64,000 bases of DNA, from the UHGV virus genome UHGV-1366123; one strand, written 5' to 3'. Below, piece after piece: positions 3,156 through 63,835 of the stretch. The notes under the pieces were generated by a model. It did no database searches. It worked only from the letters and a program-made list of their open reading frames with translations, and had not been told where the DNA came from. The translations under genes and the position numbers were made by a program. Each line of letters opens with the position of its first letter. The stretch's first letter is position 1. The DNA comes from a virus.

Positions 3156-3228
3156 GCCCTAGTAGTTCAATGGATAGAACATCGGTCTTCTAAACCGACA
3201 ATCCAAGTTCGATTCTTGGCTGGGGTAC
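3156..3228 (+). tRNA. tRNA-Arg (anticodon TCT)
   Basis: Cloverleaf folded by hand: acceptor GCCCTAG/CTGGGGT (two GU wobbles), D arm GTTC..GAAC, anticodon stem TCGGT/ACCGA with loop CTTCTAA, T arm CCAAG-TTCGATT-CTTGG; CCA not encoded. Confidence 0.8.
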
Positions 3229-39753: not shown

Positions 39754-40458
39754 TTATTTTCTCTTTCTGAAAGATATCTTCTTGTCGAACCCATGACCGA
39801 CGATCTTCTGTTCATCGGTCATCTTCACTTCAACACCGTCTTTGATTTTCGAGGAGAGGAAGTTTTGGATCTTGATGAACATCTCCTCTGGAGGAACAAT
39901 CCCACCGAAGTTGATGCACTTCAAGAGTGGATTTTTACAAGTGAAGTAACTTTCAAATCCAAATCTGGCCACCTTCGGGACTATCTCGGACGCTGATATT
40001 TCGAACAGACATCTGAACATGTCGTCGTAGTCTATACGCTCATTTCCAAAACCGTATTTTCTACCGTGAGTGATCATATAAGACATGAACATAGAGAAAA
40101 CGGTATGGGCGTTGTCAATGTTCAGTAAGAACGAGACACTGTCAGAGAGTTTCTCCTTTTCATCGATCTCCTTTGTGCAGATGAGAGAAAGAGAACGTAT
40201 GTCCTTGTGATAGAAACTCAATCTTTGGAAAGGGTGCTCCCCTCTTAAAGAATCTCTCTCGGGATCAACATCAACTCTGAGAAGATACCATGTTGTGGCA
40301 ACTTCTACAAGAAAATAGGCAAGATTATCATGACAAGAAAAACGAACATCTTCGTGCTGTAAATTGAAAGCGTGCCTATCAAACACGATCTTCCTATCTA
40401 CACCATAAACGCCTTGGATGTAGTCGTAGTAGTCTTTGTTCGTGTCAAGGATTAACAT
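39754..40458 (-). CDS. hypothetical protein (234 aa)
   Basis: ORF in minus-strand 3-gene cassette. Confidence 0.55.
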   Translation of the reverse strand: MLILDTNKDYYDYIQGVYGVDRKIVFDRHAFNLQHEDVRFSCHDNLAYFLVEVATTWYLLRVDVDPERDSLRGEHPFQRLSFYHKDIRSLSLICTKEIDEKEKLSDSVSFLLNIDNAHTVFSMFMSYMITHGRKYGFGNERIDYDDMFRCLFEISASEIVPKVARFGFESYFTCKNPLLKCINFGGIVPPEEMFIKIQNFLSSKIKDGVEVKMTDEQKIVGHGFDKKISFRKRK

Positions 40459-40985
40459 ACGTCGAAACTGTGAGCGTAGAATTTTTCGATTGTTGTTGCC
40501 GTATCGATCTTCACATGATCATAACCGAGATCTTTCATCTTCTGATCAAAGTTTTCAAAGAGCTTGTCGTCATTCTCATCTCTGGAAGTGGTATCTTGAG
40601 ATGTATCACGAATCTGTCTTCTTAGGATTGTGACTGTCTTTTCACAGACAAGTTCCGCAATTGTTATCTTTGAACGAAGATTTTGGGGGATATTCTCGAG
40701 ACCAGTTGGTGAAGTGATGAAGAAGTCACAATCTCTGAATTCTTGAAAAGTAGTTCCGTAATATTCTCCTTGGAATTCCATGAACTGGATGAACACACTA
40801 TTATTCACTAATCTCACGAATTCCTCCTTGGAAACAAAGTGATAATCTTTACCGTCTATTTCACCATCTCTTGGTTTTCTTGTAGTATGACCTATTGCTG
40901 GTTTGTATCCAAGAGTTGTAAAAACATCTAAGAAGTGATTCTTACCAACTGCAGATTTACCAACGAAAGCTATCTTCTTCATCAC
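40452..40985 (-). CDS. gmk: guanylate kinase-like nucleoside monophosphate kinase (177 aa)
   Basis: P-loop VGKSAVGKNH and signature GHTTRKPRDGEIDGKDYHFVSKEEF (TTRxPRxGExDGxDYxFVS). Confidence 0.75.
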   Translation of the reverse strand: MMKKIAFVGKSAVGKNHFLDVFTTLGYKPAIGHTTRKPRDGEIDGKDYHFVSKEEFVRLVNNSVFIQFMEFQGEYYGTTFQEFRDCDFFITSPTGLENIPQNLRSKITIAELVCEKTVTILRRQIRDTSQDTTSRDENDDKLFENFDQKMKDLGYDHVKIDTATTIEKFYAHSFDVC

Positions 40986-42956: not shown

Positions 42957-44273
42957 TTGATTATAGGAATTGTGAATAGACATCATCCGACATCAACTTC
43001 ATCTACTCATCTACTCATCTACTCATCAACTGATCAATTAATCAGACAACTCTACAACGAATTCCAACAAATGATCCTTGAGATAGAACTTAACCACTCA
43101 TCCTTGAAGAAGGGACAGAATGTTACGGAAGAGGACATTCTTATGGAAATATCTCGACTTGAGAGAGAAGCAAGTTATCAGTCCACAATTAACAAAGTCT
43201 CGAAAGTTGCTCTCAATTCAATCTATGGTGTTCTTGGTTATCACTCATTTATCCTTTACGACAGAGAAATTGCAAGATCGGTTTCGGAGCAATCTTCTCA
43301 CGTGATCCGTTACACCATTCTCTTCTTCAATAGGTATTTCCAACAGAGATTCCCAAATCATAGGGAACTACACGCAAAGATGGGGATTACAAAGTGTGAT
43401 CCGATCGATTTCAATGCGGTGAACTATGCTGACACTGATTCCGTGTTTATCCGTTACAAGGACATCATGGACAAGACCGATTACAAGGGGACTCTCGAGG
43501 AATTCGTCTTTGATATCGGTTCGTATGATCTCAATGATTGTGTCAAAGATATGCTCGAAGGCTATATTCGAAAGTTCAACGGATTCCAACAGAAGATCGA
43601 TGGACAACGTTCAATGAAGCTTGCTTTTGAAATGATCTGTCATAATGTCTTGTGGACATCGAAGAAGAAGTACATCAAGAATATCTCTTGGGAAGAAGGT
43701 GTTTATTTCAAGCCACTTGAAAACGTAGAAGTTAAAGGTCTCGACATTAACAAGAGTTCAACGCCAAAGTTTGTTCGAGAACTTCTCCGTGAGACAGTCC
43801 ACTACATCTTGCAACATAGAGAACTCAACCTTCGAGATTTCATCGACCACGTCAAGATGCAAAAATCAAAGTTCGAAAGTGCAAACGTGGAAGACGTTGC
43901 AATCTCTCAGAGAGTTAATGGTTATGAGAAATATGTGATAACTGCAAAAGATGGTGTCTTCGAATACGTCAAAGGTGTAACAATTCAGATCAGAGCTTCG
44001 AGTGTTTATAACGCAGAACTTGCAAAATCGAAGTACAAGCACAAATATCAACAGATCAGATCGGGGATGAAGATTCAGTACTACTATTCAACAGATCCTC
44101 GTAGTGATGTTTTCGCATTTGTCAACGGTGATCCTTGCTATGAGTTCCTTTATCCAATCGATTATTCTAAGCAGTTCGAAATGCTTTATCTTTCACCACT
44201 TAACAAGATAATCACATCGATTGGTGTACAAGCACTGCCTGTTTCATTGATCGCTTTCGATCCACTTTGGTAA
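42957..44273 (+). CDS. family B DNA polymerase, C-terminal (palm/thumb) portion only; likely start ATG 43071
   Basis: Motif B KVALNSIYGVLG, motif C YADTDSVFI, KKKY motif; no exonuclease domain or motif A in-frame upstream; 42957 is a TTG ORF-opening and the first 38 codons are a low-complexity tandem 9-bp repeat. Confidence 0.75.
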   Translation: MIIGIVNRHHPTSTSSTHLLIYSSTDQLIRQLYNEFQQMILEIELNHSSLKKGQNVTEEDILMEISRLEREASYQSTINKVSKVALNSIYGVLGYHSFILYDREIARSVSEQSSHVIRYTILFFNRYFQQRFPNHRELHAKMGITKCDPIDFNAVNYADTDSVFIRYKDIMDKTDYKGTLEEFVFDIGSYDLNDCVKDMLEGYIRKFNGFQQKIDGQRSMKLAFEMICHNVLWTSKKKYIKNISWEEGVYFKPLENVEVKGLDINKSSTPKFVRELLRETVHYILQHRELNLRDFIDHVKMQKSKFESANVEDVAISQRVNGYEKYVITAKDGVFEYVKGVTIQIRASSVYNAELAKSKYKHKYQQIRSGMKIQYYYSTDPRSDVFAFVNGDPCYEFLYPIDYSKQFEMLYLSPLNKIITSIGVQALPVSLIAFDPLW

Positions 44274-48339: not shown

Positions 48340-49125
48340 ATGCAAACTTATCTCGATTTGCTCAAGTACGTTCTTGAAAATGGAACAGAAAGAACTGACA
48401 GAACTGGAACTGGAACAATCTCCGTGTTTGGTCATCAAGTGGAATATGACGTAAGTGAAAAGTTCCCAATACTCACCACGAAGAGAATCCACATGAGAAG
48501 TGTCATTATGGAACTTGCTTGGATGCTCAAAGGTGATACCAACGTGAAGTTCTTAAGAGACAATGGTGTGACGATCTGGGATGAATGGGCAGATGAAAAC
48601 GGAGATCTCGGAAAGATCTACGGAAAGCAATGGAGAGATTTCGGAGGGATTGATCAAATCAAGGATATCATCGACCAAATCAAGAACAACCCAGATTCAC
48701 GAAGAATAATCGTCTCGGCTTGGAATCCTGCAGAACTCTCGGAAATGGCACTTCCTCCTTGTCATTGCTTCTTCCAGTTCTACGTCGAAGGTGACCGACT
48801 ATCCTTGAAGCTTTATCAAAGATCTGCTGATCTCTTCTTGGGTGTTCCATTTAACCTTGCACAATACTCACTCTTGCTTTACATTGTTGCAAAGATCTGT
48901 GGAAAGAAACCTCATCGTTTTATCCACTCGTTTGGAGATCTTCATATCTACAAGAATCACTTGGATCAAGTAAAGCTCCAACTATCGAGAAAACCATACG
49001 AACTCGCAGAGGTAAAAATCGTGGGAGATATCGACATTGATAATATCTCCGCAAATCTCATCGATCAAATCGAAATCAAGAACTACGTTCATCATCCCAC
49101 AATCAAGGCGGATGTGAGTGTTTAA
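48340..49125 (+). CDS. thyA: thymidylate synthase
   Basis: Near full-length identity pattern to ThyA: DRTGTGT, catalytic [22 protein letters not shown]. Confidence 0.95.
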
Positions 49126-49140
49126 AAACTCAAGCAAGCT

Positions 49141-50136
49141 ATGCAGAAAAACTCGGAACAATGCAGAACAATGCAGAAAAAATTCGGAGCAATGTGGAAA
49201 AAACTGAAGGTGGAATTCGTCGCATATGTCGGCAAGTCCTTGTGTGTCAACGATTATACGAATCCGTTCACAGATGAGAAGTACAGAGAATCACTGAGAA
49301 AGTTGATAAATGACACTCGTGAAGGTGCGATTATTCTTATGGACGGAGAGTACTTCGAAATGATGGAAAGATCAAACTTTAGAGTTCCGTCGATTGTTCT
49401 CTTTGATTTTCAACACAAAGACACCAAAGATACGAAGTTCATCTGTTCATACAGTCAACTTTGTGATTTCCTTCGTGGGAGAAACGAGAAGGTCTTCGTT
49501 ATAGGTGGATACGACACATGGGCATCGCTTGTTCAGTACGTCTCCAAAATCCACTTCCTCGTCACTGATGAGAAATGGAACGAGGAAATGACAAGACCAT
49601 TCTTGGATGATGTTCATAAAGTGTGTAAGATAACAAACTACTCAGAATTCCCTAACGGAATAATCCACCAAGAACGTGAATTTGCAGACAATGTTGTGAT
49701 TTGCAACAGTTATGTTTCTAAAGACAAAGGATGTGAACTTTACTGTTGGGATGTTCTTTCACATGTGAATTCTGAAGGTGAACCTGTAAACAGAATACTT
49801 TCGAATGGTGTATCGACAATCGTCGGAGGAGGTGATACGATTTCGATCGTTACAGATTTCAAGATGTACAGAATACCGCCCACAACTGATATCCGTGTTG
49901 TGGAAAATCCTCGTTTCCGTTCGCTTGGTGTTGTTATGCAGTCGTGTAAAATCTCTGGTGGCGACATTATCATTTCTTTTACCAACAACTCACCACACCG
50001 TGTTATGTTGGACTATAAGAAAGTGGTTGCTAATATTCACATAATCGGAGACTACAAACTCATAGGTTGTAATAACGATTTCTCAGAGAATATGGAAACC
50101 AGCAAATGGGGAACTAAACTGATCAAACACTCATAA
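49141..50136 (+). CDS. degenerate DHFR-like domain fused to dUTPase-like beta-barrel domain (paralog 1, 331 aa)
   Basis: GAIILMDGEYFE...VPSIVLF and KVFVIGGYDTWASL resemble DHFR; C-terminal VTDFKMYRIPPTT...SGGDIIISF..VMLDYKKVVANIHII aligns with paralogs. Confidence 0.55.
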   Translation: MQKNSEQCRTMQKKFGAMWKKLKVEFVAYVGKSLCVNDYTNPFTDEKYRESLRKLINDTREGAIILMDGEYFEMMERSNFRVPSIVLFDFQHKDTKDTKFICSYSQLCDFLRGRNEKVFVIGGYDTWASLVQYVSKIHFLVTDEKWNEEMTRPFLDDVHKVCKITNYSEFPNGIIHQEREFADNVVICNSYVSKDKGCELYCWDVLSHVNSEGEPVNRILSNGVSTIVGGGDTISIVTDFKMYRIPPTTDIRVVENPRFRSLGVVMQSCKISGGDIIISFTNNSPHRVMLDYKKVVANIHIIGDYKLIGCNNDFSENMETSKWGTKLIKHS

Positions 50137-50155
50137 GAACAATCACAAACAAAAG

Positions 50156-51214
50156 ATGAAGAAGAACAAGACCGAAATCGAAATGATCCTATTTGTCAAT
50201 GACAAAGGCAAGACAGTCAACGCCCAGAAGTTGTTATCTTCACCCTCCGAAAGTGATCTTCGAGACTATATCGGAAAGATTACAACTGGGAACATCATCG
50301 TCTTTGATGAGGACACGTGTTCTACACTTATCGCTCCATTACCAAACAGAATCTGTGTTGTAATTACCCAGAACAAGGACTTCAATCGTGAAGGGTTTGT
50401 TCGTGTAGAATCTATCCGAGATTTCATCGACATGCTCGGTACGAAGTTCGACAGATATCGTGATGTTTACGTAATGGTCGACAACATTCACATCGCAAGA
50501 AGCTTCATGGGTCATGTCGATAGAGTGAAGATGGTGGAAGTCAAAGGATCAAAGAACCACGACAGATACGAACTCTCTGATGTTCCTTACAAGACAATCA
50601 CTGATATTCGTCGATCTTCGAACGTTGTCGGTGAATACTCTCTCAATGATCTCGTAAAAATCATTGATTATGAGTTTAAAGACAACGTCTTCATGTGCAC
50701 AGCAAGTGTTGATGGCTTTGGATGTTGTGGTGTCTGTGCACGAGAACCAAGAATCCATGTCGACAGCTTTGGTGAAACTGTGAGAAGAAAGTCGGACTGT
50801 CGTGAATCCATAGTCCTTCACAAAGGTGATAGAGTTTTCATGAAGACTGATATCGAGATTTACAGAATTCCCAAGAACGTTTATGTCGATATCAAGACAA
50901 TCTTACATGGCTTTATCTGTAACGGAATCTCTGTGGAATCGTCGAGTATCGCTGACGGTGTCGTCTGTGTTGGACTGATAAACATGGGATCGAAGCCTGT
51001 CACCATTCACAAGGATCAAACAATTGCCATAATGGCGGTCAGAGGTGATCATGAGTTCTTGAAAGTAGAGCATAAAGACTTCCCACGTGAAAAAGTCGAT
51101 GGGTGGAATAACTTCGAACGTGAAGACGAAGATGAAAATCGTCGACCACTAAAGGATGAGTGTTGTGTGGGTAGTATAATGGAACGTTGTGAAGACAGCG
51201 ATTATGACTTTTAA
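50156..51214 (+). CDS. degenerate DHFR-like domain fused to dUTPase-like domain (paralog 2, 352 aa)
   Basis: GNIIVFDEDTCSTLIAPLPNRICVVITQN resembles DHFR; C-terminal KTDIEIYRIPKN...IADGVVCVGLINMGSKPVTIHKDQTIAIMAV resembles dUTPase motifs III-IV. Confidence 0.55.
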   Translation: MKKNKTEIEMILFVNDKGKTVNAQKLLSSPSESDLRDYIGKITTGNIIVFDEDTCSTLIAPLPNRICVVITQNKDFNREGFVRVESIRDFIDMLGTKFDRYRDVYVMVDNIHIARSFMGHVDRVKMVEVKGSKNHDRYELSDVPYKTITDIRRSSNVVGEYSLNDLVKIIDYEFKDNVFMCTASVDGFGCCGVCAREPRIHVDSFGETVRRKSDCRESIVLHKGDRVFMKTDIEIYRIPKNVYVDIKTILHGFICNGISVESSSIADGVVCVGLINMGSKPVTIHKDQTIAIMAVRGDHEFLKVEHKDFPREKVDGWNNFEREDEDENRRPLKDECCVGSIMERCEDSDYDF

Positions 51215-51227
51215 AGAATAATCGATT

Positions 51228-52097
51228 ATGCCAGTAAAGTTTATAGCTTGTACAGATAAGAACTTCGCTGTTGGAAACGATAGCAAACTTCTGTTCAGAA
51301 TTCGAGAAGATATGAAGCTGTTCCGTGAGCTGACGATGGGAAGCATTGTCGTCATGGGCAGGAAGACCTTCGAAGAGATCGGAAAGCCACTTGAAGGTAG
51401 AATAAACATTGTTCTATCAAGATCGGACATTTCTATTGGAGGTGTTCACGTTTTCCGATCGATGGAAGAATTGAAAGCTTTCTGCATGACATCTGAAAAT
51501 CGACAGAAAGATGTCTTTGTGATTGGTGGTGCAGAAATGTGGGAACTCTTTAGAAGATATGTTTCACAGATCCACCTCACGAAAGTCCCAGATGACTGTC
51601 CCGAATACGACACCGTCTTCCCTCATGATCTCTTGACGGCTTTCACACTCGTTCATAAGAATCAGATCGGCATCTATGAAAAGAACTATCAACCGATTGT
51701 CCATGAAGTCTATGACAGACAGAAGGATGTGACGGTTATGAACCGCAAGAATGATAAGCTCGTACCTTTGAGATTTGTCGATGTTCTTGAATATGTCGGT
51801 GATAAACCATCAACGATTCTTAAAGACGATTCAGTGAAGATACTTGCAAATGACAGAATCGCTGTAAAAACTGATCTTCGTGTTTATGAACTTCCTTTAG
51901 ACACGCTTGTCAGTGTGGATGTCGTTCCATCAGTTTTTATGGACAACGGACTGATGATTGCAGGTTGGGATATCTTTGATGATGACTTTATCGTTTACAT
52001 GACACTGATTGGAAAGAAGTCGATTTCACTGAAACGTGGTGATATCATAGCAGACGTTAATTTCTATTCTCGTCATCCTCTGATTTACGCCCCATAA
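51228..52097 (+). CDS. folA: dihydrofolate reductase fused to C-terminal dUTPase-like domain (paralog 3, 289 aa)
   Basis: IVVMGRKTFEEIGKPLEGRINIVLSR and DVFVIGGAEMWELF...IHLTKVPDDCPEYDTVFP are canonical DHFR; C-terminal KTDLRVYELPLDT...GWDIFDDDFIVYMTLIGKKSISLKRGDIIADV. Confidence 0.85.
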   Translation: MPVKFIACTDKNFAVGNDSKLLFRIREDMKLFRELTMGSIVVMGRKTFEEIGKPLEGRINIVLSRSDISIGGVHVFRSMEELKAFCMTSENRQKDVFVIGGAEMWELFRRYVSQIHLTKVPDDCPEYDTVFPHDLLTAFTLVHKNQIGIYEKNYQPIVHEVYDRQKDVTVMNRKNDKLVPLRFVDVLEYVGDKPSTILKDDSVKILANDRIAVKTDLRVYELPLDTLVSVDVVPSVFMDNGLMIAGWDIFDDDFIVYMTLIGKKSISLKRGDIIADVNFYSRHPLIYAP

Positions 52098-52573: not shown

Positions 52574-53302
52574 ATGGACATTATCAAAAACCTCGGTTAT
52601 AACCAACATGGGATACTGGACAACATCCAGAAGCTGTATCTCGACGGAAAGCCGATCGATTGTGACATCACTTATTCCAAAGGTGCTTTCTATGGAAAGT
52701 TCAAAGTGAAGGAAGCAGATGGAGAAACTCGTGAAATCACAATCGAACAACCTCGACTAAAGTTTGATGTTTTCCCACTTTCGGAAGATGTTCAGAAGAT
52801 AGAACCCTTAAAGCCACTTCCACTCGAAGATCAATCGATCGAATCAATGATGATCGACCTACCGTTTATCGTCAGACCAACAAAGCCAGACACGTCGGTG
52901 ACTGATGAAACTGGGTCGAAGATGTTCAACCGATTCCAAGGTTTTCACACTCCAGACGACATGTATGAAACGTACTGGTTCTGGATCAACGAAGCTTATC
53001 GTGTGCTGAAGGTCGGTGGTACGCTTCTCTTCAAGACACAGAACACGATTTATGGCGGTATCAACCACAATACTGAGTTTTTCTCGTTCATGTGTGCCGA
53101 GAGAGCAGGGTTTGTCACCGAAGACACCTTCGTTCTTGGTGCAAAGTCGAGAATGATCTCACCATTTATGACCAAGCAGTTGCACGCTCGAAAGTTCACA
53201 TCGACTTTCTTCATCTTCAAGAAGCACAAATCCACAAAACATAAGAAGTTCAACTATTGGTCATTAATCCCAAAGCTTGAAGAATCTCATCATCATCAAT
53301 AA
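52574..53302 (+). CDS. possible truncated amino-methyltransferase-like protein (242 aa)
   Basis: IDLPFIV then YWFWINEAYRVLKVGGTLLFKTQ resembles the DPPY...RVLKpgG region of N6/N4 MTases; no AdoMet FxGxG motif seen. Confidence 0.3.
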   Translation: MDIIKNLGYNQHGILDNIQKLYLDGKPIDCDITYSKGAFYGKFKVKEADGETREITIEQPRLKFDVFPLSEDVQKIEPLKPLPLEDQSIESMMIDLPFIVRPTKPDTSVTDETGSKMFNRFQGFHTPDDMYETYWFWINEAYRVLKVGGTLLFKTQNTIYGGINHNTEFFSFMCAERAGFVTEDTFVLGAKSRMISPFMTKQLHARKFTSTFFIFKKHKSTKHKKFNYWSLIPKLEESHHHQ

Positions 53303-53322: not shown

Positions 53323-55365
53323 ATGTCAAAATCAGAAATCGCTAACGAGTTCTTGAGTGATCTCGTCGTGCATTCGAAGTATGCGAACATTGTCCCAGAG
53401 GAACATAGAAAGCAGACTTGGGAAGAATGTGTGGCAGAACTGGAGAAGATGTTCATCAATGACTATCCTCATCTTGAGGGAGAGATCCGTGAGAACATGA
53501 AGATGGTGTACTCAAAGAAGGTGTTCCCATCAATGAGATCGATCCAGTTCGGTGGTCTCCCAATCTCGTATAATCCAACACGAATATACAACTGTTCTGC
53601 ACTTCTTCTTAATGATACAAAGTGCTTCTCAGAGATCATGCACATTCTCTTGAGTGGGACAGGAATCGGTGTTTCTATCCAAAAGCGACACATCGACAAT
53701 CTCCCAGAAGTCAAGAAACCAACCAAGAAGAAGCGTTTCCTCATCTCAGATTCTATCGAAGGTTGGGCAGATGCCGTTCGTATGCTCTGTTACTCTTATC
53801 TTCGTGGGAATCCTTACCCAGAGTTCGACTATCGTGACATCCGCCCAAAGGGATCAATCATCAAGAAGTTGAACTGCTATGCACCAGGTCATGAAAGACT
53901 CAAGAAGTCAATCGAACAGATCGACAAGGTCTTCAAGACAGCAGTTGGTCGAAAGCTCACACCTCTTGAATGTCTTGATATTTCTTGCTTCATCGGTGAT
54001 GCTGTGGTCAGTGGTGGTGTGAGAATGGCTGCAATGATCATGTTCTTCGATAAGGATGATGAAGCAATTATGACTGCAAAGTCAAATGTTCCACTTCGAA
54101 GTGCAACAGTAGAATCTGAGGACGATAAGAACTGGTACATCAAGGTAGAACCGAAGAACATCGACGACTTCTATGGTGATGAATCACGAGTTATCACTGT
54201 TCGCAAGAAGTTCGGTGACTTTGACAATTCTTGGGACTTTGACAACATCTGCAAGAATCTCTCTGCAAGTTGGTACTACGTGCATCCTCAGAGAGCAATG
54301 AGTAACAACTCTGCAGTACTTCATCGTGATGATACCACACGTGAAGAACTCGAGAAGTTGATGAGAATCGCAGATTCGAACAAGTCTGGAGAACCAGGTC
54401 TTTTCTGGACGAATGACTATGACATGATCTCGAACCCATGTGGCGAGATTGCGCTCAACGACTGTCAGTTCTGTAATCTTTCAACGATCGTTGCCTACGA
54501 TATTCGTACGCAGGAAGAGTTTAACCATCGTGCACGAGTGGCATCATTCCTTGGAACTCTCCAAGCAGGTTACACGAACTTTCACTACCTCCGCCCAAAG
54601 TGGAAGGAACAGACCGAAAAGGAAGCACTTCTGGGGGTATCTTTGACAGGTATTGCATCGGGAACTATCCTTTCTCTCAATGAAACCGAAGCTGCATTGT
54701 GTGCAGTAGAAGAAAACAAGAGAGTGGCAAAACTCATCGGTGTAAATGAAGCACAAAGAGTAACGACGATCAAGCCCGAAGGGACATCAACGATCGTTGC
54801 TGGTGTGTTCGGAAGTGGGATTCACTCTGCTCATGCTGAATACTACGTTCGCAACATTCGCATTCTGAAGTCTGACCCAGTTTACACTTATCTGAAGATC
54901 AACGCTCCAGATTTCCTTGATGATGAATATTCCGATAAGGACAAAGCCGTGTTCTCTGTTCCTATGCGAGCAAATCACGACTGCATCTTCAGAACGGAAT
55001 CCACCTTCGACCTTCTTGAGAGAATCAAGAGATTCAACGAGAACTGGATAGCACCAGGTCATATCTCTGGAGCAAACAAGCACAACGTCTCCTCGACTGT
55101 CTACGTCAAAGATGGTGAAATCGATAAGGTCATCGAGTGGATGTGGGATAATCGTAATTCCTATTCTGGTCTCACGATTCTTCCTTTCGATGGTGGTACT
55201 TACAAACAAGCACCTTTCCAAGATATCACGAAGGAAGAATATGAACAGATGCTTGAGAAGTTCCCGACGAATCTCGACCTTTCTAAGGTTTATATCGAAG
55301 ACATCAAGACTACTCAATTCGAATACGCTTGCGCAGGTGGGGCTTGTGAAGTGAAGTCCGTTTAG
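53323..55365 (+). CDS. nrdJ: ribonucleotide reductase, class II (B12-dependent)-like monomeric type (680 aa)
   Basis: Active-site NPCGEIAL...CQFCNLSTIV, SGTGIGVS; size typical of monomeric class II. Confidence 0.65.
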   Translation: MSKSEIANEFLSDLVVHSKYANIVPEEHRKQTWEECVAELEKMFINDYPHLEGEIRENMKMVYSKKVFPSMRSIQFGGLPISYNPTRIYNCSALLLNDTKCFSEIMHILLSGTGIGVSIQKRHIDNLPEVKKPTKKKRFLISDSIEGWADAVRMLCYSYLRGNPYPEFDYRDIRPKGSIIKKLNCYAPGHERLKKSIEQIDKVFKTAVGRKLTPLECLDISCFIGDAVVSGGVRMAAMIMFFDKDDEAIMTAKSNVPLRSATVESEDDKNWYIKVEPKNIDDFYGDESRVITVRKKFGDFDNSWDFDNICKNLSASWYYVHPQRAMSNNSAVLHRDDTTREELEKLMRIADSNKSGEPGLFWTNDYDMISNPCGEIALNDCQFCNLSTIVAYDIRTQEEFNHRARVASFLGTLQAGYTNFHYLRPKWKEQTEKEALLGVSLTGIASGTILSLNETEAALCAVEENKRVAKLIGVNEAQRVTTIKPEGTSTIVAGVFGSGIHSAHAEYYVRNIRILKSDPVYTYLKINAPDFLDDEYSDKDKAVFSVPMRANHDCIFRTESTFDLLERIKRFNENWIAPGHISGANKHNVSSTVYVKDGEIDKVIEWMWDNRNSYSGLTILPFDGGTYKQAPFQDITKEEYEQMLEKFPTNLDLSKVYIEDIKTTQFEYACAGGACEVKSV

Positions 55366-55454: not shown

Positions 55455-55940
55455 ATGATTATCACGTTTCTCATCATAATCGTCTCTTTCATCCTCTTGT
55501 TCTATAAGACGATCAAACTCTACAAGTACACTTCAGATTGTTTCACAAACATCGTCGAAAATGAAACGATTCAACTAAGGTACAGGATGAAAATCGATGG
55601 ACAAGACGTAAAGAATGTCAGAAAGACAATGTTCAACGTGCTTTATGTTTTTGTGGTTATACCAGATGAAGTGAGAAAGGCAGATCATATGAGCTACATC
55701 ATAAGCCACTTACAGCTGATCGAAGAATCATTACAAGTTCAGAATCTTTATGGTCTTGTAAGTTCTTCACGTGAACAGTTTGTAAGTGAAGAAAATGATA
55801 AAGAAAGAACGATTTATCTCGTAAAGTTCAAGCCGATCATTTATGGTCTTGATCTTTGGAGAATCCTTGTCTTCATTTTCTCTATAATCGTCGCAATTTA
55901 TAATAAAGAAATAGCAGAACTGATATGGCTAATGTTTTAA
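55455..55940 (+). CDS. membrane protein (161 aa; N- and C-terminal TM helices)
   Basis: MIITFLIIIVSFILLF and LWRILVFIFSIIVAIY. Confidence 0.45.
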   Translation: MIITFLIIIVSFILLFYKTIKLYKYTSDCFTNIVENETIQLRYRMKIDGQDVKNVRKTMFNVLYVFVVIPDEVRKADHMSYIISHLQLIEESLQVQNLYGLVSSSREQFVSEENDKERTIYLVKFKPIIYGLDLWRILVFIFSIIVAIYNKEIAELIWLMF

Positions 55941-57317: not shown

Positions 57318-57581
57318 ATGACTAAGAAAGAATTCATCACAGCTCTCGCAGAGCAGACTGGTGCAACTAAGACGCAGGTAGAAGCCATCATCGGTGCTTA
57401 TCACAAGACTATCATCGAAAGTCTTAAGAAGGATGAGCCAGTGACCTTCGTTGGCTTCGGTACGTACTCATCCAGAGTTCGCCCAGAGCGTGAAGCCTTC
57501 AAGCCTGGTACTAAGGAAAAGATGACAGTACCTGCAAAGAAGGTCGGTAAGTTCAAGATGTCAAAGTCTGTAGAACTTTAG
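57318..57581 (+). CDS. hup: HU/IHF-family DNA-binding protein (87 aa)
   Basis: MTKKEFITALAEQTGATKTQVEAII...VTFVGFGTYSSRVRPEREAFKPGTKEKMTVPAKKVGKFKMSK matches the HU fold signature. Confidence 0.85.
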   Translation: MTKKEFITALAEQTGATKTQVEAIIGAYHKTIIESLKKDEPVTFVGFGTYSSRVRPEREAFKPGTKEKMTVPAKKVGKFKMSKSVEL

Positions 57582-57774: not shown

Positions 57775-59205
57775 ATGAAAGCCAAGAAGCATCACGTGGG
57801 CATGTTTGACCACATGTTCCAAAAGGGAAAGATCACATTCTTGCTGGATGGTTACTCCGCAGGTTCATCTGGGAAGGGCAAATGTGAATCTCTGATCGTA
57901 AAGAACACGTCGTTTGGATCTAAAGACAGTGATAAGCGTCTTGCAGTCTGTACCACAAACTCTGCAAATGCGTCACATTGGGTTTATGATGACGGCAAGA
58001 AGATGATGTTCGAAGTCCTCCCTTCATCGGCTTACCTGTACGAAAAGCTCGAGTTCGTGGCTATCGGTCACGGTGCGTCGTTCTCCGTTGAACGTCTCTT
58101 CGAAGAAATCAAGATGAGCGGTCTTCCCCTCGATAAGCTCTTCATCCACCCCAAGGCAGGGATCATCACCAAGATCGACGAAGACTACGAAAAGGGTCTT
58201 TGTGATATCGACGGCAACTATTCGTCACAAGACCACGACGGCACAATTGCAGGTGGTTCAACTTGCTCTGGATCTGGTGCAGTTCGTGCAAAGAAGGTCG
58301 TTCGAAACAAGACGGTGACTTATGCTTACCAAGTCCCAGAACTCAAGCAGTTCATCTGTGATGTCGAAAAGCGTCTTATGACGTTTATGATCAATGGAGG
58401 ATCAGTCCTTCTGCAGATTGGTCAAGGTTTCCCACTTTCGTATGGTCTCGGCTATAACAAGCAGAACTCAACAAGTCGAAATGTGACAATCAGTGCAGCT
58501 TTGGATGATATGAATCTTCCTCCATTCTTCGCAGGTGACGTTATCTTGAATGGTAGAACTTATCCGATCAAGATCAACAACAAGAAGTATCGCCTTATTG
58601 GTGGGAAGCCAGTTGTCCGACTTCACAAGAACTCGGAATCGACGCTCAAGTACTACGCTCATAAGCATCTGTTCGACTTCATCGAAGGAGATGATCACGT
58701 TTCTATCGTCACACGTAAGGAATTCATCAACTTCTACGAAATGCGTGAGTTCCCCTACCTTGAATACGAAGTCATCGAATCGTTCAGTGGTACTGGTTAT
58801 TCTCCAATCTGGAACGAAGAAAGTCACCAGCGAGAAATCACGTGGGAAGATGTCGAAAAGAACTATGGGAAGACAATCCCAGATGATGTAAAATGCACGT
58901 CACTTACCAAGCTCCCCCGAAGAGTCTTTGAGTTCGATAAGAGCCTTCTGCACGACGGTATTCTCTACAATCTCTCTCCAAATGGCAAAACTCATATTGT
59001 CATCAACTTCGTCAACTGGGTAGATGGTGAAATGGACGGAGAACGTGAGAAGATCACCGAAAAGGTCGAAGATTGGCTCTCCAAGAACATGTTCGGCGAA
59101 ATCGACACTATCAACAAGCTCGTAGGTGGTAATGATGAAAAGGTCGTGCTTTCTGTACTCGGGACTGGTCGTGAATCCGACGACTTTGTCGCTGTAGAAC
59201 AGTAA
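57775..59205 (+). CDS. adenylosuccinate synthetase-family enzyme, divergent (PurA/PurZ-like, 476 aa)
   Basis: P-loop GSSGKGK aligns with [30 protein letters not shown] aligns with [32 protein letters not shown] with [18 protein letters not shown] with GAQGTLLDIDHG. Confidence 0.55.
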   Translation: [476 protein letters not shown]

Positions 59206-59230
59206 TTTCCTCTCTTCAAAGGAACAATCC

Positions 59231-59280
59231 GCAAGAATGGGGTCATTGTGACAATAAGCACACAATGACCCCATTCTTGT
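59231..59280 (+). terminator. Stem-loop acaagaatggggtcattgtg...cacaatgaccccattcttgt
   Basis: 20-bp perfect stem. Confidence 0.55.
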
Positions 59281-59336
59281 TATAAGATTAATAAAAAACG
59301 TAGCAACCCCCCCCACACCATTTCAAAATCTTCATT

Positions 59337-59738
59337 ATGACAAAAGACGACTGCACAAGCATTAAGAAGATACTACGGATTTCTACGATAGTTTTCTTCG
59401 TTATCACTACGATTTACTTCATTGTCGCAATTATGCGTATTGCAAACATAGGAAGTGAAAACAAACCTCACGAGATAATCGATTCGTTGAAATACACAAA
59501 CTCTGTCTATGAACACGATGTTCGAAAGTTGAAGGCGCAGATCGATTCACTTTCCCTACAAAACGAGATATCTTCAAAAAAGATCGATTCACTTGAAAAT
59601 GTCGTCGACACGAAGACATCTTCACTAAGGAAAGCAGAGAGCGCAATGCGAGCAAAGAAGCTGAATTTCTCCAAAGACGTGTTCGAAGTCGAACAAGAAC
59701 TAAGACAAAACATCCAAGAATATGAAAAGAATAATTAG
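59337..59738 (+). CDS. small TM plus coiled-coil protein (133 aa)
   Basis: N-terminal hydrophobic helix, heptad-rich C-terminus. Confidence 0.45.
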   Translation: MTKDDCTSIKKILRISTIVFFVITTIYFIVAIMRIANIGSENKPHEIIDSLKYTNSVYEHDVRKLKAQIDSLSLQNEISSKKIDSLENVVDTKTSSLRKAESAMRAKKLNFSKDVFEVEQELRQNIQEYEKNN

Positions 59739-60120
59739 TCTCTCGCTCTTGATGCTCATCTATGGTGTAACAGTGTCACATGCGCAGAACATAGAAATCT
59801 CGAAGAAAGATGCTGTCATAATCAACCACATGTTTGATCAACACAAGCAACTTCTTGAAATCTCCACAATGAAGGATTCGATCATGCAGTCGTTGAGGGA
59901 AGTCGTGGACAACAAGACACTTATCATTGAAAACCAACTTGAACAGCTTCGCAAGTATGACGAAATGATGATGAAGAATGACACGATCATTAATAACCAT
60001 AAGAAGATGGCGGAGATCTATGAGAAATCTCTGAAAAAGGAAAGACAAAAGTCAGTATTTTGGAAATATGTTGGACTTCTTTCCTCTGCAGTGGCTATCA
60101 CCGCATTCATCATAAAATAG
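59722..60120 (+). CDS. small secreted/coiled-coil protein with C-terminal TM (132 aa)
   Basis: Signal-like N-terminus, C-terminal hydrophobic helix. Confidence 0.45.
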   Translation: MKRIISLSLLMLIYGVTVSHAQNIEISKKDAVIINHMFDQHKQLLEISTMKDSIMQSLREVVDNKTLIIENQLEQLRKYDEMMMKNDTIINNHKKMAEIYEKSLKKERQKSVFWKYVGLLSSAVAITAFIIK

Positions 60121-60130
60121 GCTCTCCGAG

Positions 60131-60152
60131 CTTAAGGAAGGTATTTTCCTTG
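60131..60152. repeat. GTAC palindrome cttaaggaaggtattttccttg
   Basis: Family member directly upstream of purB. Confidence 0.6.
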
Positions 60153-60198
60153 CGCTCTGGAATATCGACGAATATTTTCACCCCAATCAAATCAAGAA

Positions 60199-61470
60199 AT
60201 GTCAAGGAACGTATCTCCTCTCGATCACAGGTATGCCGATGTCATACAGAACATGTCACACATCTTCAATTCTGAAAGATACTATAAGACGATGTGGAAT
60301 GTCGAAGTCGAATATCTTCTTTACTTCTTAAAAGAGATAGCAAACATAGAAGTAAACGAAGACATCATCAGAAAAAACTGCAAGTTCGACAGTTCTGTCT
60401 ACAACGAGATTCTTGAAGAGGAAAATGTAACCAAGCACGATGTCAAGGCAGTTATCAATGTCCTACAGAGAAAAACGTCGGGTTCGGTTTATGTCCATTT
60501 CGGACTGACTTCACAAGACATAGTTTCTCTGTCAATGTCTATTCTCATGCAAGAAGCAATGGAAGTCATTGATCGTTCGGTAAACTATGTCGAAGGAATC
60601 CTTGAAAATCTTCATAGAGAGACAAGGGGCATTTGGTCTCTATCAAAGACTCATGGACAATCTGCAGTTCCTCATCTTTTGAAAGATGACGTTTATAAAT
60701 GGCGGTATGATGTCTTGAAGTTTAGACAACGTACAAACAACTATTCAGTTGTCAAATTCTCTGGTGCTGTCGGTAACAACTTCGCAATTTCGAGACTTTT
60801 CGACATAGATGTTCGGAGAGTTGCAGAACTTATGGATTCGTTCGTCAAGAAATTCGGACGGTTCACTGTTAGTGGAGAAGAAGCGACACAAACCGACAGA
60901 TGGGAATCGTTCTGTGAAAGATTCTCTGATTGGAATCTGGCCATTTCAAGAATCATTAGCGACATTCAACAGATTTGGCAAATGTGCTCGGATGGTTATT
61001 TCAAACTGAAGGTAGACGAAGGTTATTGTGGATCTTCCGCTATGCCCCACAAGGTCAACCCCATCAAGTTTGAAAATGCGGAAGGATGCTTCTGTAGATG
61101 TCAGAAAGACTTCGAGTTTTACATTAATAAGTTATCGAAATCAAGAATGCATCGTGATCTTTCAGATTCAGTGGTCATAAGAATGATCCCCGAGACGTTG
61201 TCTTATCTTTATCTCGGATTCTCTTCGTTTGCAAATGGCTTGAAGTCGCTCGAGGTGAACGAGGAGAAGATAAAAGATGATCTCGAGGAGAACTATCAAG
61301 TGTTCTCTGAAATCGTACAGCTCTATCTAAAGATGAAGGGAGATGAGGACGCATATGAAGAATCAAAGCGTGTGTTTAGAGGAAGCCAGATGACACTCTA
61401 CGACTTCAAGAAAGCTCTTAAAGCTCTGAACATTGAGTATGATGAAATCAAGAAGTTCATAGAACTTTAG
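60199..61470 (+). CDS. purB: adenylosuccinate lyase
   Basis: N-terminal SPLDHRY signature and superfamily motif GSSAMPHKVNP. Confidence 0.8.
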   Translation: MSRNVSPLDHRYADVIQNMSHIFNSERYYKTMWNVEVEYLLYFLKEIANIEVNEDIIRKNCKFDSSVYNEILEEENVTKHDVKAVINVLQRKTSGSVYVHFGLTSQDIVSLSMSILMQEAMEVIDRSVNYVEGILENLHRETRGIWSLSKTHGQSAVPHLLKDDVYKWRYDVLKFRQRTNNYSVVKFSGAVGNNFAISRLFDIDVRRVAELMDSFVKKFGRFTVSGEEATQTDRWESFCERFSDWNLAISRIISDIQQIWQMCSDGYFKLKVDEGYCGSSAMPHKVNPIKFENAEGCFCRCQKDFEFYINKLSKSRMHRDLSDSVVIRMIPETLSYLYLGFSSFANGLKSLEVNEEKIKDDLEENYQVFSEIVQLYLKMKGDEDAYEESKRVFRGSQMTLYDFKKALKALNIEYDEIKKFIEL

Positions 61471-61481
61471 AGACAAATAGA

Positions 61482-61542
61482 AAATCGTCGGTGAGATCCT
61501 TTTGTTGGTAGTTACATAACAAAAGGATCTCACCGATTTTTG
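61482..61542 (+). terminator. Terminator atcgtcggtgagatccttttgtt...aacaaaaggatctcaccgatttttg
   Basis: Long perfect stem plus T-run. Confidence 0.65.
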
Positions 61543-62181
61543 TATATGGACTACCAGCTCGTAATACCTTCACTAAAGCCGATATCTTACCAGTCATTGG
61601 AAGCAAAGCAGACGATAAAGATTGATGATGAGGAAATTGTCGATCTTTGTTCTGAATCGTTTTCAAAGACTGTTCCTATGGACTATACGTTGCAGATATC
61701 GACGATTTCTGAAGATTTGAGCGGTAGACCTCATCTTGTATCGAGGATTCTTATGGGATCAGAGGACGATGCTGATATCTTGATGCATTACAACCACGTC
61801 TCGAATCCTTATTCGATGGATGGGACTTTCACGTTTATAACACCAAACAGACAGACAGCAGTCGAAGCTATAAAGAAGTCGGCTTCATCTTCACAGAAGG
61901 AGAACGAATCTCAAGTAGAACTCAATCGAAGTGTTGCAGAGAAGGATAAGAAGAGGATAATGGAACTTATACGACAGTCCAATCCTCAGATGGTTTCGGA
62001 ATCCACAACACCAATCAGAACAACGAACATGACTACACAGCCACAGACAGAAGAAAAGGATGGTGAGATCGTGTTTGGTACAAACGTTGTGTCGAAGAGA
62101 TGTTCTGGTGACCTCTCTTCGACACAATCAAGAACGGAGATGATAAGAAGAACTATCCGTTCAATGGCTATTAAATCATAG
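61540..62181 (+). CDS. hypothetical protein (213 aa)
   Basis: ORF. Confidence 0.5.
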   Translation: MYMDYQLVIPSLKPISYQSLEAKQTIKIDDEEIVDLCSESFSKTVPMDYTLQISTISEDLSGRPHLVSRILMGSEDDADILMHYNHVSNPYSMDGTFTFITPNRQTAVEAIKKSASSSQKENESQVELNRSVAEKDKKRIMELIRQSNPQMVSESTTPIRTTNMTTQPQTEEKDGEIVFGTNVVSKRCSGDLSSTQSRTEMIRRTIRSMAIKS

Positions 62182-62184
62182 CCT

Positions 62185-62652
62185 TTATTCTTTCCAGAGT
62201 TCCTTTATTATCCCTTCGGAGAGGATCTTTTTTGCATCATCTTCATCAAAAGAAAGTTCAACGATGTCTTTCACAACATCCTCTTTCGGTATGTTGTAAG
62301 ATTGGGATAAAAAGTCGATGATGCTCTCGGGGATCATGTCGATTTCGACCATAATGTTGAAAGAAATAGTGGACTTCACACCATTCTTCACAATTCCTAT
62401 GACCTCATTTGGGAGGTTTAACTTTCTTGGTGGTAGCTTTATAGCGTGAGACTTATCATTGTCTTCATAGATCATCATTTTCTGATCATTATCTTCCTCT
62501 TTGATCTCGTTTCTATGAAGCATTATCGTCTGACGAGGTTCTTCGTTGATAACCTCTCTGACATTATCAGAAGGTGTCGTGATTGGTATTCCGTTTTCAT
62601 CAACTTCTAACGTGCTAAAGACATCCCACGCTTTGCTATTATTCTCTTCCAT
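62185..62652 (-). CDS. hypothetical acidic protein (155 aa)
   Basis: Minus-strand ORF with no overlapping + ORF. Confidence 0.5.
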   Translation of the reverse strand: MEENNSKAWDVFSTLEVDENGIPITTPSDNVREVINEEPRQTIMLHRNEIKEEDNDQKMMIYEDNDKSHAIKLPPRKLNLPNEVIGIVKNGVKSTISFNIMVEIDMIPESIIDFLSQSYNIPKEDVVKDIVELSFDEDDAKKILSEGIIKELWKE

Positions 62653-62730
62653 ACCTGTTGATCTTTCTGATTGGTTTTTCTTCTTATACTTTTAAATAAT
62701 GAGAATTTTTGATCAAAAAAGAAACGAAAC

Positions 62731-63258
62731 ATGTTTGAACTTAGTAATATCAAGATCACAAAGTCTAAGGTCGATGAGAAAAGCATCGAATCTAACGGCT
62801 TTTGGTTTACACCTGTCAATGGTGAATTCAACACCGATGGTGTTGTAGAGTTTATAACGAGTGAACTTGAAAGCCCTAAGTGGCTTGATGGTAAGACATT
62901 CCCATCTCTTAATCATCTCTTCGTCACGGAATCACAGACGAATCTCTTCATGGCTCTGTGTCCGTCTGTAGTCATCGATGGTTATTCGTTCGAACTGAAG
63001 TATAACCGCATCCTCGGTGGTCACCAGCTCCACGCCATAAAGGTGGAAGGTGAAGATGCAGAAGAAGAACAGACCGAAACCGAAACGGAAAAGGTAGAAG
63101 AAACTACGGAAACCGCAGAAGAAACTACGGAAAAGGCTGAAGACGATTCTAAGGAAGAAAAGACCGAAGACACAAAGGAAGTAGAAGAAAAGACTGAAGA
63201 AAAGGTAGAAGAACCAAAGGAAAAGAAGACTACCGCACGCAAATCGACGAAGAAGTAA
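62731..63258 (+). CDS. hypothetical protein with highly acidic E/K/T-rich tail (175 aa)
   Basis: ORF. Confidence 0.5.
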   Translation: MFELSNIKITKSKVDEKSIESNGFWFTPVNGEFNTDGVVEFITSELESPKWLDGKTFPSLNHLFVTESQTNLFMALCPSVVIDGYSFELKYNRILGGHQLHAIKVEGEDAEEEQTETETEKVEETTETAEETTEKAEDDSKEEKTEDTKEVEEKTEEKVEEPKEKKTTARKSTKK

Positions 63259-63298
63259 AGATCTCGTCGGTTTTGTTGATTGATTTGATTGATTAGTT

Positions 63299-63336
63299 TG
63301 AGGTCGCTATGTCGAGAAGATATGGCGACCTCGTCA
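63299..63336 (+). terminator. Stem-loop gaggtcgctat...atggcgacctc
   Basis: Inverted repeat after stop. Confidence 0.45.
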
Positions 63337-63364
63337 TATATAAGAATACCACAAATCAGTCATA

Positions 63365-63835
63365 TTGATAACAATAAAAATGGATGAAAAAGTAAAAGAA
63401 TACGAGCAATTTGTCGTTTCTTGCTTCAACGAGAATCCTACAAATAACAAGGTTCTCGACTTCATTCACATGACAATGGCACTTATGTCAGAATCTGGTG
63501 AATTCGCTGATATAGTCAAGAAGGCGGTGTTCCATTCTAAGGAGATCTCGAAGGTTGATCTCGTAGACGAACTCGGTGATGTTCTGTTCTACTTCATGAA
63601 CATTTGTCATTTCCTTGGTGTCACGATTGATGATGTCATGGAAGCAAATCTCATAAAAATCCGTGAAAGATACCCCGAAGGTCGTGGCAAGAACTACAAC
63701 TTCGGTACACGTAATAAGGCAGAAGAAAAGAAGAGAATAGAACAATTCTTGATGAAGATAAAGCAGGATGTTTCAATCGATATCAACATCAGCCAAATCA
63801 ATCCTCATCATCAGTCTCAACACATAGGAAAGTAA
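63365..63835 (+). CDS. MazG-like nucleoside triphosphate pyrophosphohydrolase (156 aa)
   Basis: ALMSESGEFADIVKK (EExGE) and ELGDVLFYFMNICHFLGVTIDDVMEANLIKIRERY match the all-alpha MazG signature. Confidence 0.8.
   Translation: MITIKMDEKVKEYEQFVVSCFNENPTNNKVLDFIHMTMALMSESGEFADIVKKAVFHSKEISKVDLVDELGDVLFYFMNICHFLGVTIDDVMEANLIKIRERYPEGRGKNYNFGTRNKAEEKKRIEQFLMKIKQDVSIDINISQINPHHQSQHIGK

Follow-up and report, generated by a model that had tools for sequence, protein, structure and literature searches.

The 64,000-nucleotide stretch analysed here (the window) belongs to the UHGV virus genome UHGV-1366123, a phage of the T4-like myovirus type with a ~150-kb genome that is found in human oral metagenomes. 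A gene cluster in the window, composed of a long-form PurZ-like synthetase (57775-59205, + strand), a PurB of the E. coli type (60199-61470, + strand) and a MazG-type NTP pyrophosphohydrolase (63365-63835, + strand), and complemented by a guanylate-kinase-like (Gmk-like) nucleoside monophosphate (NMP) kinase (40452-40985, - strand), probably amounts to the phage 2-aminoadenine (Z) nucleotide pathway in a self-contained form. We infer both the substrates of the enzymes and the occurrence of Z in virion DNA from the sequences. An earlier note on this DNA had proposed a candidate pathway for Z or another modified purine; its open reading frame (ORF) coordinates and family calls (PurA-family, PurB, MazG, HU and guanylate kinase homolog) were confirmed by ORF calls and hidden Markov model (HMM) searches, and its Z-pathway reading gains support from the tree of the synthetase, the PurZ-type pocket residues and a putative PurB, Gmk-like and MazG route to the diphosphate dZDP.

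The 476-aa synthetase matches PF00709 with 32.8 bits over its N-terminal part only. Its best NCBIfam model is that of PurZ (NF038379, 85.7 bits, residues 30-268 only), followed by the archaeal-type PurA model (NF003295, 81.9 bits), and it does not reach the equivalog cut-offs of PurA (44.1 vs 395.55 bits for TIGR00184 and 81.9 vs 368 bits for NF003295). The best PDB matches by sequence are PurZ of phiVC8 (6tnh, 6fko) and PurZ of S-2L (7odx), with Pyrococcus PurA ranking behind them. Among cultured phages, only the Flavobacterium phage MaF61, a 167.8-kb myovirus, has a full-length relative of the synthetase (39.5% identity). The other inspected matches of a tblastn search in a phage database were all known or annotated PurZ enzymes, aligned in the N-terminal half at 26-30% identity, and phage PurA-likes of the Asp type (with the Asp13 of PurA) were not detected by this search at E<1e-3. 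An exhaustive search among 1.84 billion representative proteins yielded 753 relatives and did not reach the bulk of cellular PurA; ~44 of the 753 had E<1e-30, and the sequences of the next tier have PurZ length (330-400 aa). In a viral structure library, a metagenomic Myoviridae protein named "Uncharacterized protein" is the sole long-form match. Certain homologues (P0073, P0128-P0141) run to 750-820 aa and match the synthetase in three stretches; P0073 holds intein (PF14890) and LAGLIDADG (PF03161) domains, which implies that inteins invaded the long-form synthetase gene.

The published determinants of PurZ (S14, T262, F295, Y298 and the differentially conserved W252, Y244 and P233; bioRxiv 10.1101/2025.10.22.683976) are kept in 93-100% of the 120 long-form clade members across which residue conservation was scored. 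The P-loop Ser31, which corresponds to S14 of phiVC8 PurZ and stands in place of Asp13 of PurA, is found in 120/120, and T375 (T262 of PurZ) in 118/120. The N294-F295-x-N297 motif of PurZ is present in place of the guanine-specific Asp333 of PurA (Asn here); in this ATP-adenine motif (N411-F412-V-N414) the N, F and N residues are conserved in 117, 119 and 116 of the 120 sequences, respectively, and the adjoining position of W415 (Y298 of PurZ) is aromatic in all of them. The W252 position is kept in 120/120, Y244 in 112/120 and P233 in 118/120. The 2'-OH gate is Ile267 in 118/120, vs Val (V241) in S-2L, and Leu380 (113/120), the equivalent of L278 of S-2L, takes the place of the ribose-contacting Arg303 of PurA. 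The aspartate loop (T-S-L-T-K-L-P-R-R) is a near copy of that of S-2L (T-T-V-T-K-L-P-R-R). Of the ligand-contacting pocket residues listed for S-2L PurZ (PMC8342488), those of the dGMP pocket, the aspartate loop and the triphosphate are kept or conservatively substituted in the PurZ form; the exceptions are Y21 (a backbone contact), which is Ala in the clade, and, as variable positions, Y203/C204 and the ATP-stacking P336. Unlike in PurZ, the F12 position is Ala in 96/120; S-2L PurZ touches its ligand via the backbone at the equivalent position (PMC8342488).

The AlphaFold2 (AF2) model of the synthetase (predicted local distance difference test, pLDDT, 95.5; predicted template modelling score, pTM, 0.93) superposes with template modelling (TM) scores of 0.84 on phiVC8 PurZ (6tnh), 0.85 on Pyrococcus PurA, 0.82 on S-2L PurZ and 0.77 on PurZ0, while bacterial PurA fits poorly (TM ~0.6, root-mean-square deviation ~10 A). 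PurZ of phiVC8 was the best PDB match by fold as well as by sequence. Fold alone does not tell PurZ from archaeal PurA (0.84 vs 0.85); the residues alone do. Between PIKI(267) and SFSGTGY(336) the model shows a ~68-aa alpha/beta insertion (residues ~268-336), which occupies the same site as the short PurZ-specific insertion. We propose that the enzyme is a predicted dSMP (N6-succino-2-amino-2'-deoxyadenylate) synthase, which would convert dGMP, Asp and ATP to dSMP.

The earlier note called for a phylogeny against PurZ, PurZ0 and cellular PurA. In a bootstrapped neighbour-joining tree of a 133-taxon alignment, the Ser-type sequences (PurZ/PurZ0) are split from the Asp-type ones with 100% bootstrap, and the synthetase lies on the Ser side, apart from E. 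coli PurA and in a clade of its own. Ser occupies the PurA Asp13 position in 125/133 aligned sequences, including 118/118 metagenomic neighbours, and the five Asp-type sequences in the alignment are those of E. coli PurA, a faecal-phage PurA, mycobacteriophage Catera, Vibrio phiTY18 and Rhizobium TM39. The long-form clade (94% bootstrap) consists of the window protein, MaF61 and 25 metagenomic sequences and is separate from the clade of characterised PurZ enzymes (92% bootstrap; phiVC8, S-2L, PMBT28, Acinetobacter and BCSR129). On its sequence, the synthetase is not a cellular PurA; it is a member of the Ser-type PurZ superclade, and its pocket is of the PurZ type. It is PurZ-like by the sequence and structure criteria tested, F12 apart, yet it is under the curated threshold and outside both named subfamilies, hence we file it as a long-form variant and not as PurZ sensu stricto.

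Comparison of the long form to PurZ (phiVC8, S-2L and SH-Ab 15497) shows that the P-loop Ser, the T-x-x-T-K-L-P-R-R loop, the N-F-x-N motif with its aromatic neighbour, the hydrophobic 2'-OH gate and the compact archaeal-type fold (TM 0.82-0.84) are common, while the long form differs in its length (476 aa vs 343-390 aa), in the ~68-aa inserted domain and in the F12 to Ala change. The long form occurs in ~150-kb myoviruses with a family-B polymerase, whereas PurZ occurs in ~40-kb sipho- and podoviruses with DpoZ or PrimPol. With PurZ0 (Arthrobacter and Gordonia phages; PDB 7vf6) it shares the Ser-type superclade and the fold (TM 0.77); Microbacterium phage Cicada, taken as PurZ0-type although this is unconfirmed, is without the F295/Y298 aromatic pair (Met/Gln), whereas the ATP-type motif is present in the window protein. 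DutZ/DmtZ, which PurZ0 genomes encode (PMC12884076), were not seen in the window phage. The Asp-type phage PurA-likes (cluster C mycobacteriophages, Rhizobium RHph_TM39 and Vibrio phiTY18) are likewise PF00709 homologues of 150-200-kb phages; however, they keep Asp13, are without the PurZ signature and group with cellular PurA (100% bootstrap). The claim that phages almost never carry PurA homologs does not hold, as 278 phage records match E. coli PurA; these are mostly Asp-type and come mostly from cluster-C mycobacteriophages and from Rhizobium and Vibrio jumbo phages.

PurB (423 aa) contains the PF00206 (Lyase_1, 87.8 bits) and PF08328 (ASL_C, 87.6 bits) domains, with the motifs THGQ at residue 151 and SSAMPHKVNP at residue 279, which we take, by analogy with E. 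coli PurB, to provide the catalytic His and the Ser loop (SSxMPxKxNP), respectively. Its PRK09285 score (268.6 bits) is under the 446-bit equivalog cut-off, and the sequence is that of a divergent, phage-evolved copy, predicted to convert dSMP to dZMP and fumarate. Phage-encoded PurB is otherwise very rare among isolate phages. The MazG protein (PF03819, 40.7 bits; PHROG 229, 107 bits) is annotated from a TTG start, its probable true start being the ATG at 63380 (151 aa), as in sister contigs; it is a candidate supplier of dGMP from dGTP. The description of this MazG as MazZ-like stands as far as membership of the superfamily is concerned and fails as to orthology, since the BLASTP similarity with S-2L MazZ is weak and local (34 aligned residues) and phmmer returned no S-2L MazZ match at E<1e-3. 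The 177-aa guanylate-kinase-like protein matches PF00625 (65.6 bits) and TIGR03263 (64 bits, cut-off 160) over residues 2-84 only; it retains the P-loop and the GMP-binding half and is a candidate dZMP to dZDP kinase.

The linkage of these genes was assessed in 62 synthetase loci (denoted L) of 22 lineages, a gene being near the synthetase if located within 10 kb. The synthetase, PurB and MazG cluster reported in the earlier note is real: the order HU-synthetase-PurB-MazG is kept at synthetase identities of 88% (L005), 65% (L006, on a 204-kb contig) and 39% (L022). PurB is near the synthetase in 6/22 lineages, and a gene for HU adjoins it or is near it in 6/22 as well. The loci with PurB in synteny with the synthetase are L005, L006, L009-L014, L015-19 and L022, and MazG is conserved 3' of PurB in L005, L006 and L022. 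The linked lyases belong to two subfamilies, the PRK09285 or E. coli type (window, L006, L015, L022 and MaF61) and the TIGR00928 type (L023/L024). This implies that the PurB association was assembled at least twice, which favours functional coupling over inherited synteny. Gmk-like homologues are near the synthetase in L023, L024, L040, L044 and L046/47, and a class II reductase in 4 lineages. The clustering of HU, synthetase, PurB and MazG is beyond chance, and there is genomic coupling between the synthetase and the PurB, Gmk-like and MazG genes. Terminase, Metallophos and AAA genes were rejected as pathway partners; they appear to reflect T4-type core synteny and are probably gp46/gp47-like.

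We propose the following route. MazG would convert dGTP to dGMP, to which the breakdown of host DNA could add; the long-form PurZ-like enzyme, judged by its pocket residues, would convert dGMP to dSMP with ATP and Asp; the phage PurB would remove fumarate from dSMP to give dZMP; the Gmk-like enzyme would phosphorylate dZMP to dZDP; a host NDP kinase would generate dZTP; and the phage family-B polymerase would insert Z opposite T. The classical Z-cluster (PurZ, DatZ, MazZ/DUF550 and DpoZ) has in common with the window a PurZ-type synthetase near a MazG-superfamily pyrophosphatase in a region of replication and nucleotide metabolism; it differs in that the window phage encodes PurB and a Gmk-like protein and is without a detected DatZ, DUF550 or DpoZ in the searched part of its genome. 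In classical Z-phages the conversion of dSMP to dZMP is carried out by host PurB and that of dZMP to dZDP by host GMP kinase (PMC8342488; bioRxiv 10.1101/2025.10.22.683976). The linked PurB and Gmk-like genes cover exactly the steps for which classical Z-phages rely on their host. As known Z-phages use host PurB and GMP kinase, PurB cannot be regarded as typical of Z-phages, as had been supposed; a phage-encoded PurB in a PurZ-type setting is new rather than typical. No report in the searchable literature joins PurZ with a PurB or Gmk of phage origin or places it in large myoviruses.

The genome beyond the window was followed on the sister contig IMGVR_UViG_3300009964_000001, which was walked from ~11 kb to ~131.5 kb (~120 of ~150 kb). 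Pfam searches of the window detected no HD/DatZ, dUTPase, NDT or deaminase family; homologues of DatZ, S-2L MazZ and DpoZ were found neither in the window nor in 56 related loci, and no dATP-removing homologue (DatZ, DutZ/DUF5664 or DUF550) was found in the window, these 56 loci or the ~120 kb of genome. Further sweeps returned only replication, chaperone and lysis genes. The single HD-family protein is YfbR-like and lies on the sister contig (L175:14026-14781), ~22 kb right of the window end. Thus the statement that no DatZ-like HD hydrolase is visible is correct for the window, while an HD protein outside it exists, albeit without the specificity residues of DatZ. This protein, which Pfam does not recognise in its window-phage copy, is orthologous to MaF61 ORF97 (HD_3; E 1.4e-22, custom HMM 1.7e-35), is 94-96% conserved in sister contigs, and keeps the H..HD..D metal ligands with R-Y-N-G at the positions of R19-W20-x-I22 of DatZ. 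In DatZ, W20 and I22 are specificity determinants and Ile22 excludes 2-aminopurines (PMC8065100); the HD protein of the window phage has neither. It is the sole candidate dATP remover. MaF61 ORF97 was also considered as a DatZ equivalent and is a weak candidate only, being a member of a widespread family without I22. The gene of the HD protein has a PIF1 helicase/DUF4494 pair on one side and the clamp loader on the other. Weak HD-HMM matches 5' of PurB in L015/L017 were rejected as spurious, the proteins being signal-peptide/transmembrane (TM) proteins. An adenosine-deaminase-family gene (PF00962; TIGR01430 164 bits; L007:1206-2159, also in L057 and L059) is near the synthetase in three distant lineages, which have no PurB nearby; adenosine deaminase could offer an alternative removal of adenine nucleotides.

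The wider search for DatZ and a polymerase partner, which the earlier note had suggested, failed to find DatZ in the ~120 kb covered and uncovered a family-B polymerase that is apparently split into a 438-aa PF00136 ORF in the window (42957-44273) and a 498-aa PF00136 ORF (L160:14655-16151). The halves are ~27 kb apart, the second being located beyond the terminase, just outside the window; the polymerase is neither DpoZ nor PrimPol. Klenow and S-2L PrimPol accept both dATP and dZTP (PMC8065100, PMC8342488). As the polymerases tested accept both nucleotides, incorporation of Z as such is plausible.

A number of results weigh against a Z pathway. The NF038379 score of the synthetase (85.7 bits) is far under the curated cut-off of 300; the enzyme falls outside the characterised PurZ clade in a tree that does not include archaeal PurA and does not settle the branching order among the Ser-type lineages, and the ~68-aa insertion beside the substrate pocket could alter its specificity. 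MazG, by its sequence, is not a MazZ orthologue. The searched ~120 of ~150 kb contain no DatZ, DpoZ, DUF550, dUTPase or NDT gene, the position of DatZ Ile22 is an invariant Gly in the family of the HD protein, and this family has >584 members in IMG/VR. The paper describing MaF61 does not address the synthetase gene and reports no DNA chemistry. Part of these results would suit a PurZ-type chemistry that operates without genome replacement, that is, low-level or partial incorporation of Z, manipulation of the nucleotide pool, a dGMP drain or a counter to host defences aimed at purine nucleotides, with largely canonical virion DNA. We consider this unlikely. In its favour, neither a DatZ-type dATPase nor a Z-selective polymerase was found in ~120 kb, polymerases take A and Z alike when dATP is not removed (PMC8065100, PMC8342488), and the adenosine-deaminase genes that accompany the synthetase in three lineages without a nearby PurB hint at a broader remodelling of the purine pool. 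However, a four-gene route to the diphosphate looks built for a polymerase substrate, PurB was gained independently at least twice, and partial substitution would still be Z-DNA.

Ordinary auxiliary purine metabolism, in which PurA/PurB-like enzymes convert IMP (dIMP) to AMP (dAMP) and feed a genome of 59% A+T, appears quite improbable. PurA and PurB do form the canonical AMP branch, the phage is rich in genes of nucleotide supply (ribonucleoside-triphosphate reductase, RTPR; ThyA; DHFR) and other large phages carry Asp-type PurA-likes; against this, 120/120 clade members have Ser where PurA has its 99% conserved catalytic Asp13 (PMC12884076), the GTP-specifying Asp333 is replaced by Asn and the ribose-contacting Arg303 by Leu, the TIGR00184 score is 44 vs 395 bits, and the split from the Asp-type sequences has 100% bootstrap. 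We give very little credence to a different modified purine, made by amination or succinylation of another 6-oxopurine nucleotide or by keeping or further modifying the succinylated product. The location of the ~68-aa insertion in the loop that covers the ribose and aspartate site, the F12 to Ala change and the deep divergence of the clade from characterised PurZ would be in line with such a product, but the base-pocket residues are as in PurZ, the lyase beside the synthetase in 6/22 lineages suggests that the succinyl group is removed as usual, and searches of the window brought up no further purine-modification genes.

The Z pathway may extend beyond the window phage. Identical copies of window proteins are present on contigs from human oral metagenomes (PRJEB6997), and the phage is also present in Human Microbiome Project (HMP) samples. 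IMG/VR genomes of ~145-150 kb share 96-98% synthetase identity with the window phage (L009-L014), while megablast of the 7-kb region against phage isolates gave no DNA-level match. MaF61 shares the synthetase, PurB, the Gmk-like protein (PF00625), a MazG-like protein and the same HD family (ORF141/ORF149/ORF95/ORF62/ORF97, with ORF95 encoding the Gmk-like protein and ORF97 the HD_3 protein); unlike in the window cluster, these genes are dispersed over its genome, and only a putative adenosuccinate synthetase and lyase are annotated. It is conceivable, and we advance it tentatively, that a widespread lineage of large T4-like myoviruses (~130-400 kb contigs), which includes abundant oral phages of humans and MaF61, replaces much or all of its A with Z by means of a long-form PurZ, its own PurB, a Gmk-like enzyme, a family-B polymerase and a dATP exclusion unrelated to DatZ.

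Directly upstream of the synthetase lies the gene of an HU-family DNA-binding protein (57318-57581, + strand; PF00216, 89.2 bits). HU reads the minor groove, where Z carries its additional amino group; a link to the synthetase is speculative, as is the idea that the tightly linked HU could be suited to Z:T DNA with its altered minor groove. A parallel in PMBT28 was dismissed, since the "DNA-binding protein" upstream of its PurZ is a single-stranded DNA-binding protein (SSB) whose tail reads DDDIPF. Between the synthetase and PurB lie two small ORFs that overlap (133 and 132 aa; 59337-60120, + strand); they have a membrane/secreted look, matched no Pfam family in a sweep of 28 window ORFs and are not counted as parts of the pathway; similar signal/TM ORFs are also found 5' of PurB in L015/L017. 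A class II B12-dependent ribonucleoside-triphosphate reductase (53323-55365, + strand; TIGR02505, 217.5 bits; no Pfam match) is dNTP-supply context outside the core pathway. The window also encodes ThyA and DHFR, as the earlier note had stated, the latter as two DHFR-like genes, as well as half of the family-B polymerase and a T4-type portal. In 48340-52097 ThyA is followed by a 331-aa ORF without assigned family, by a 352-aa ORF that weakly matches DHFR and by a 289-aa DHFR extended at its C-terminus. A 242-aa ORF (52574-53302) has a sub-threshold match to N6/N4 DNA methylases (PF01555, E=1e-4, below cut-off); an adenine methylase would sit oddly in a Z-genome. The 161-aa protein encoded by 55455-55940 has hydrophobic N- and C-termini and no known family match, and its homologues are near the synthetase in 8/22 lineages, more than those of PurB or HU. 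Pfam sweeps of the remaining window ORFs detected RtcB RNA ligase, 5'-3' exonuclease, CotH, LamG and MORN domains, CotH and LamG being borne by a 2340-aa protein (8494-15516). A tRNA-Arg(TCT) gene is located at 3156-3228, and NAD-dependent DNA ligase, GroES/GroEL and a gp32-like SSB are encoded just beyond the window (L158/L160). When 57-64 kb was scanned for promoters and terminators, the matches did not exceed chance.

A 2026 survey lists 481 phage PF00709 homologues, of which 147 are PurZ/PurZ0 and ~330 were left unclassified (PMC12884076). Z-genomes are so far documented in small sipho- and podoviruses (PMC8599892), and Pseudomonadota, Cyanobacteriota and Actinomycetota are named as the hosts of Z-phages (PMC12884076). 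Besides host PurB and GMP kinase, these phages require DatZ together with DpoZ or PrimPol. MaF61 is in culture, hence the question whether the long-form clade makes Z-DNA is testable now. If it does, its members would provide new enzymes for making Z-DNA, and library methods that rely on restriction or enzymes may miss or distort such phages. Z-genomes would then extend to large T4-like myoviruses with family-B polymerases and reach also a Bacteroidota host, as MaF61 infects Flavobacterium, and the human oral virome, through a self-sufficient pathway that would imply a new way of excluding dATP.

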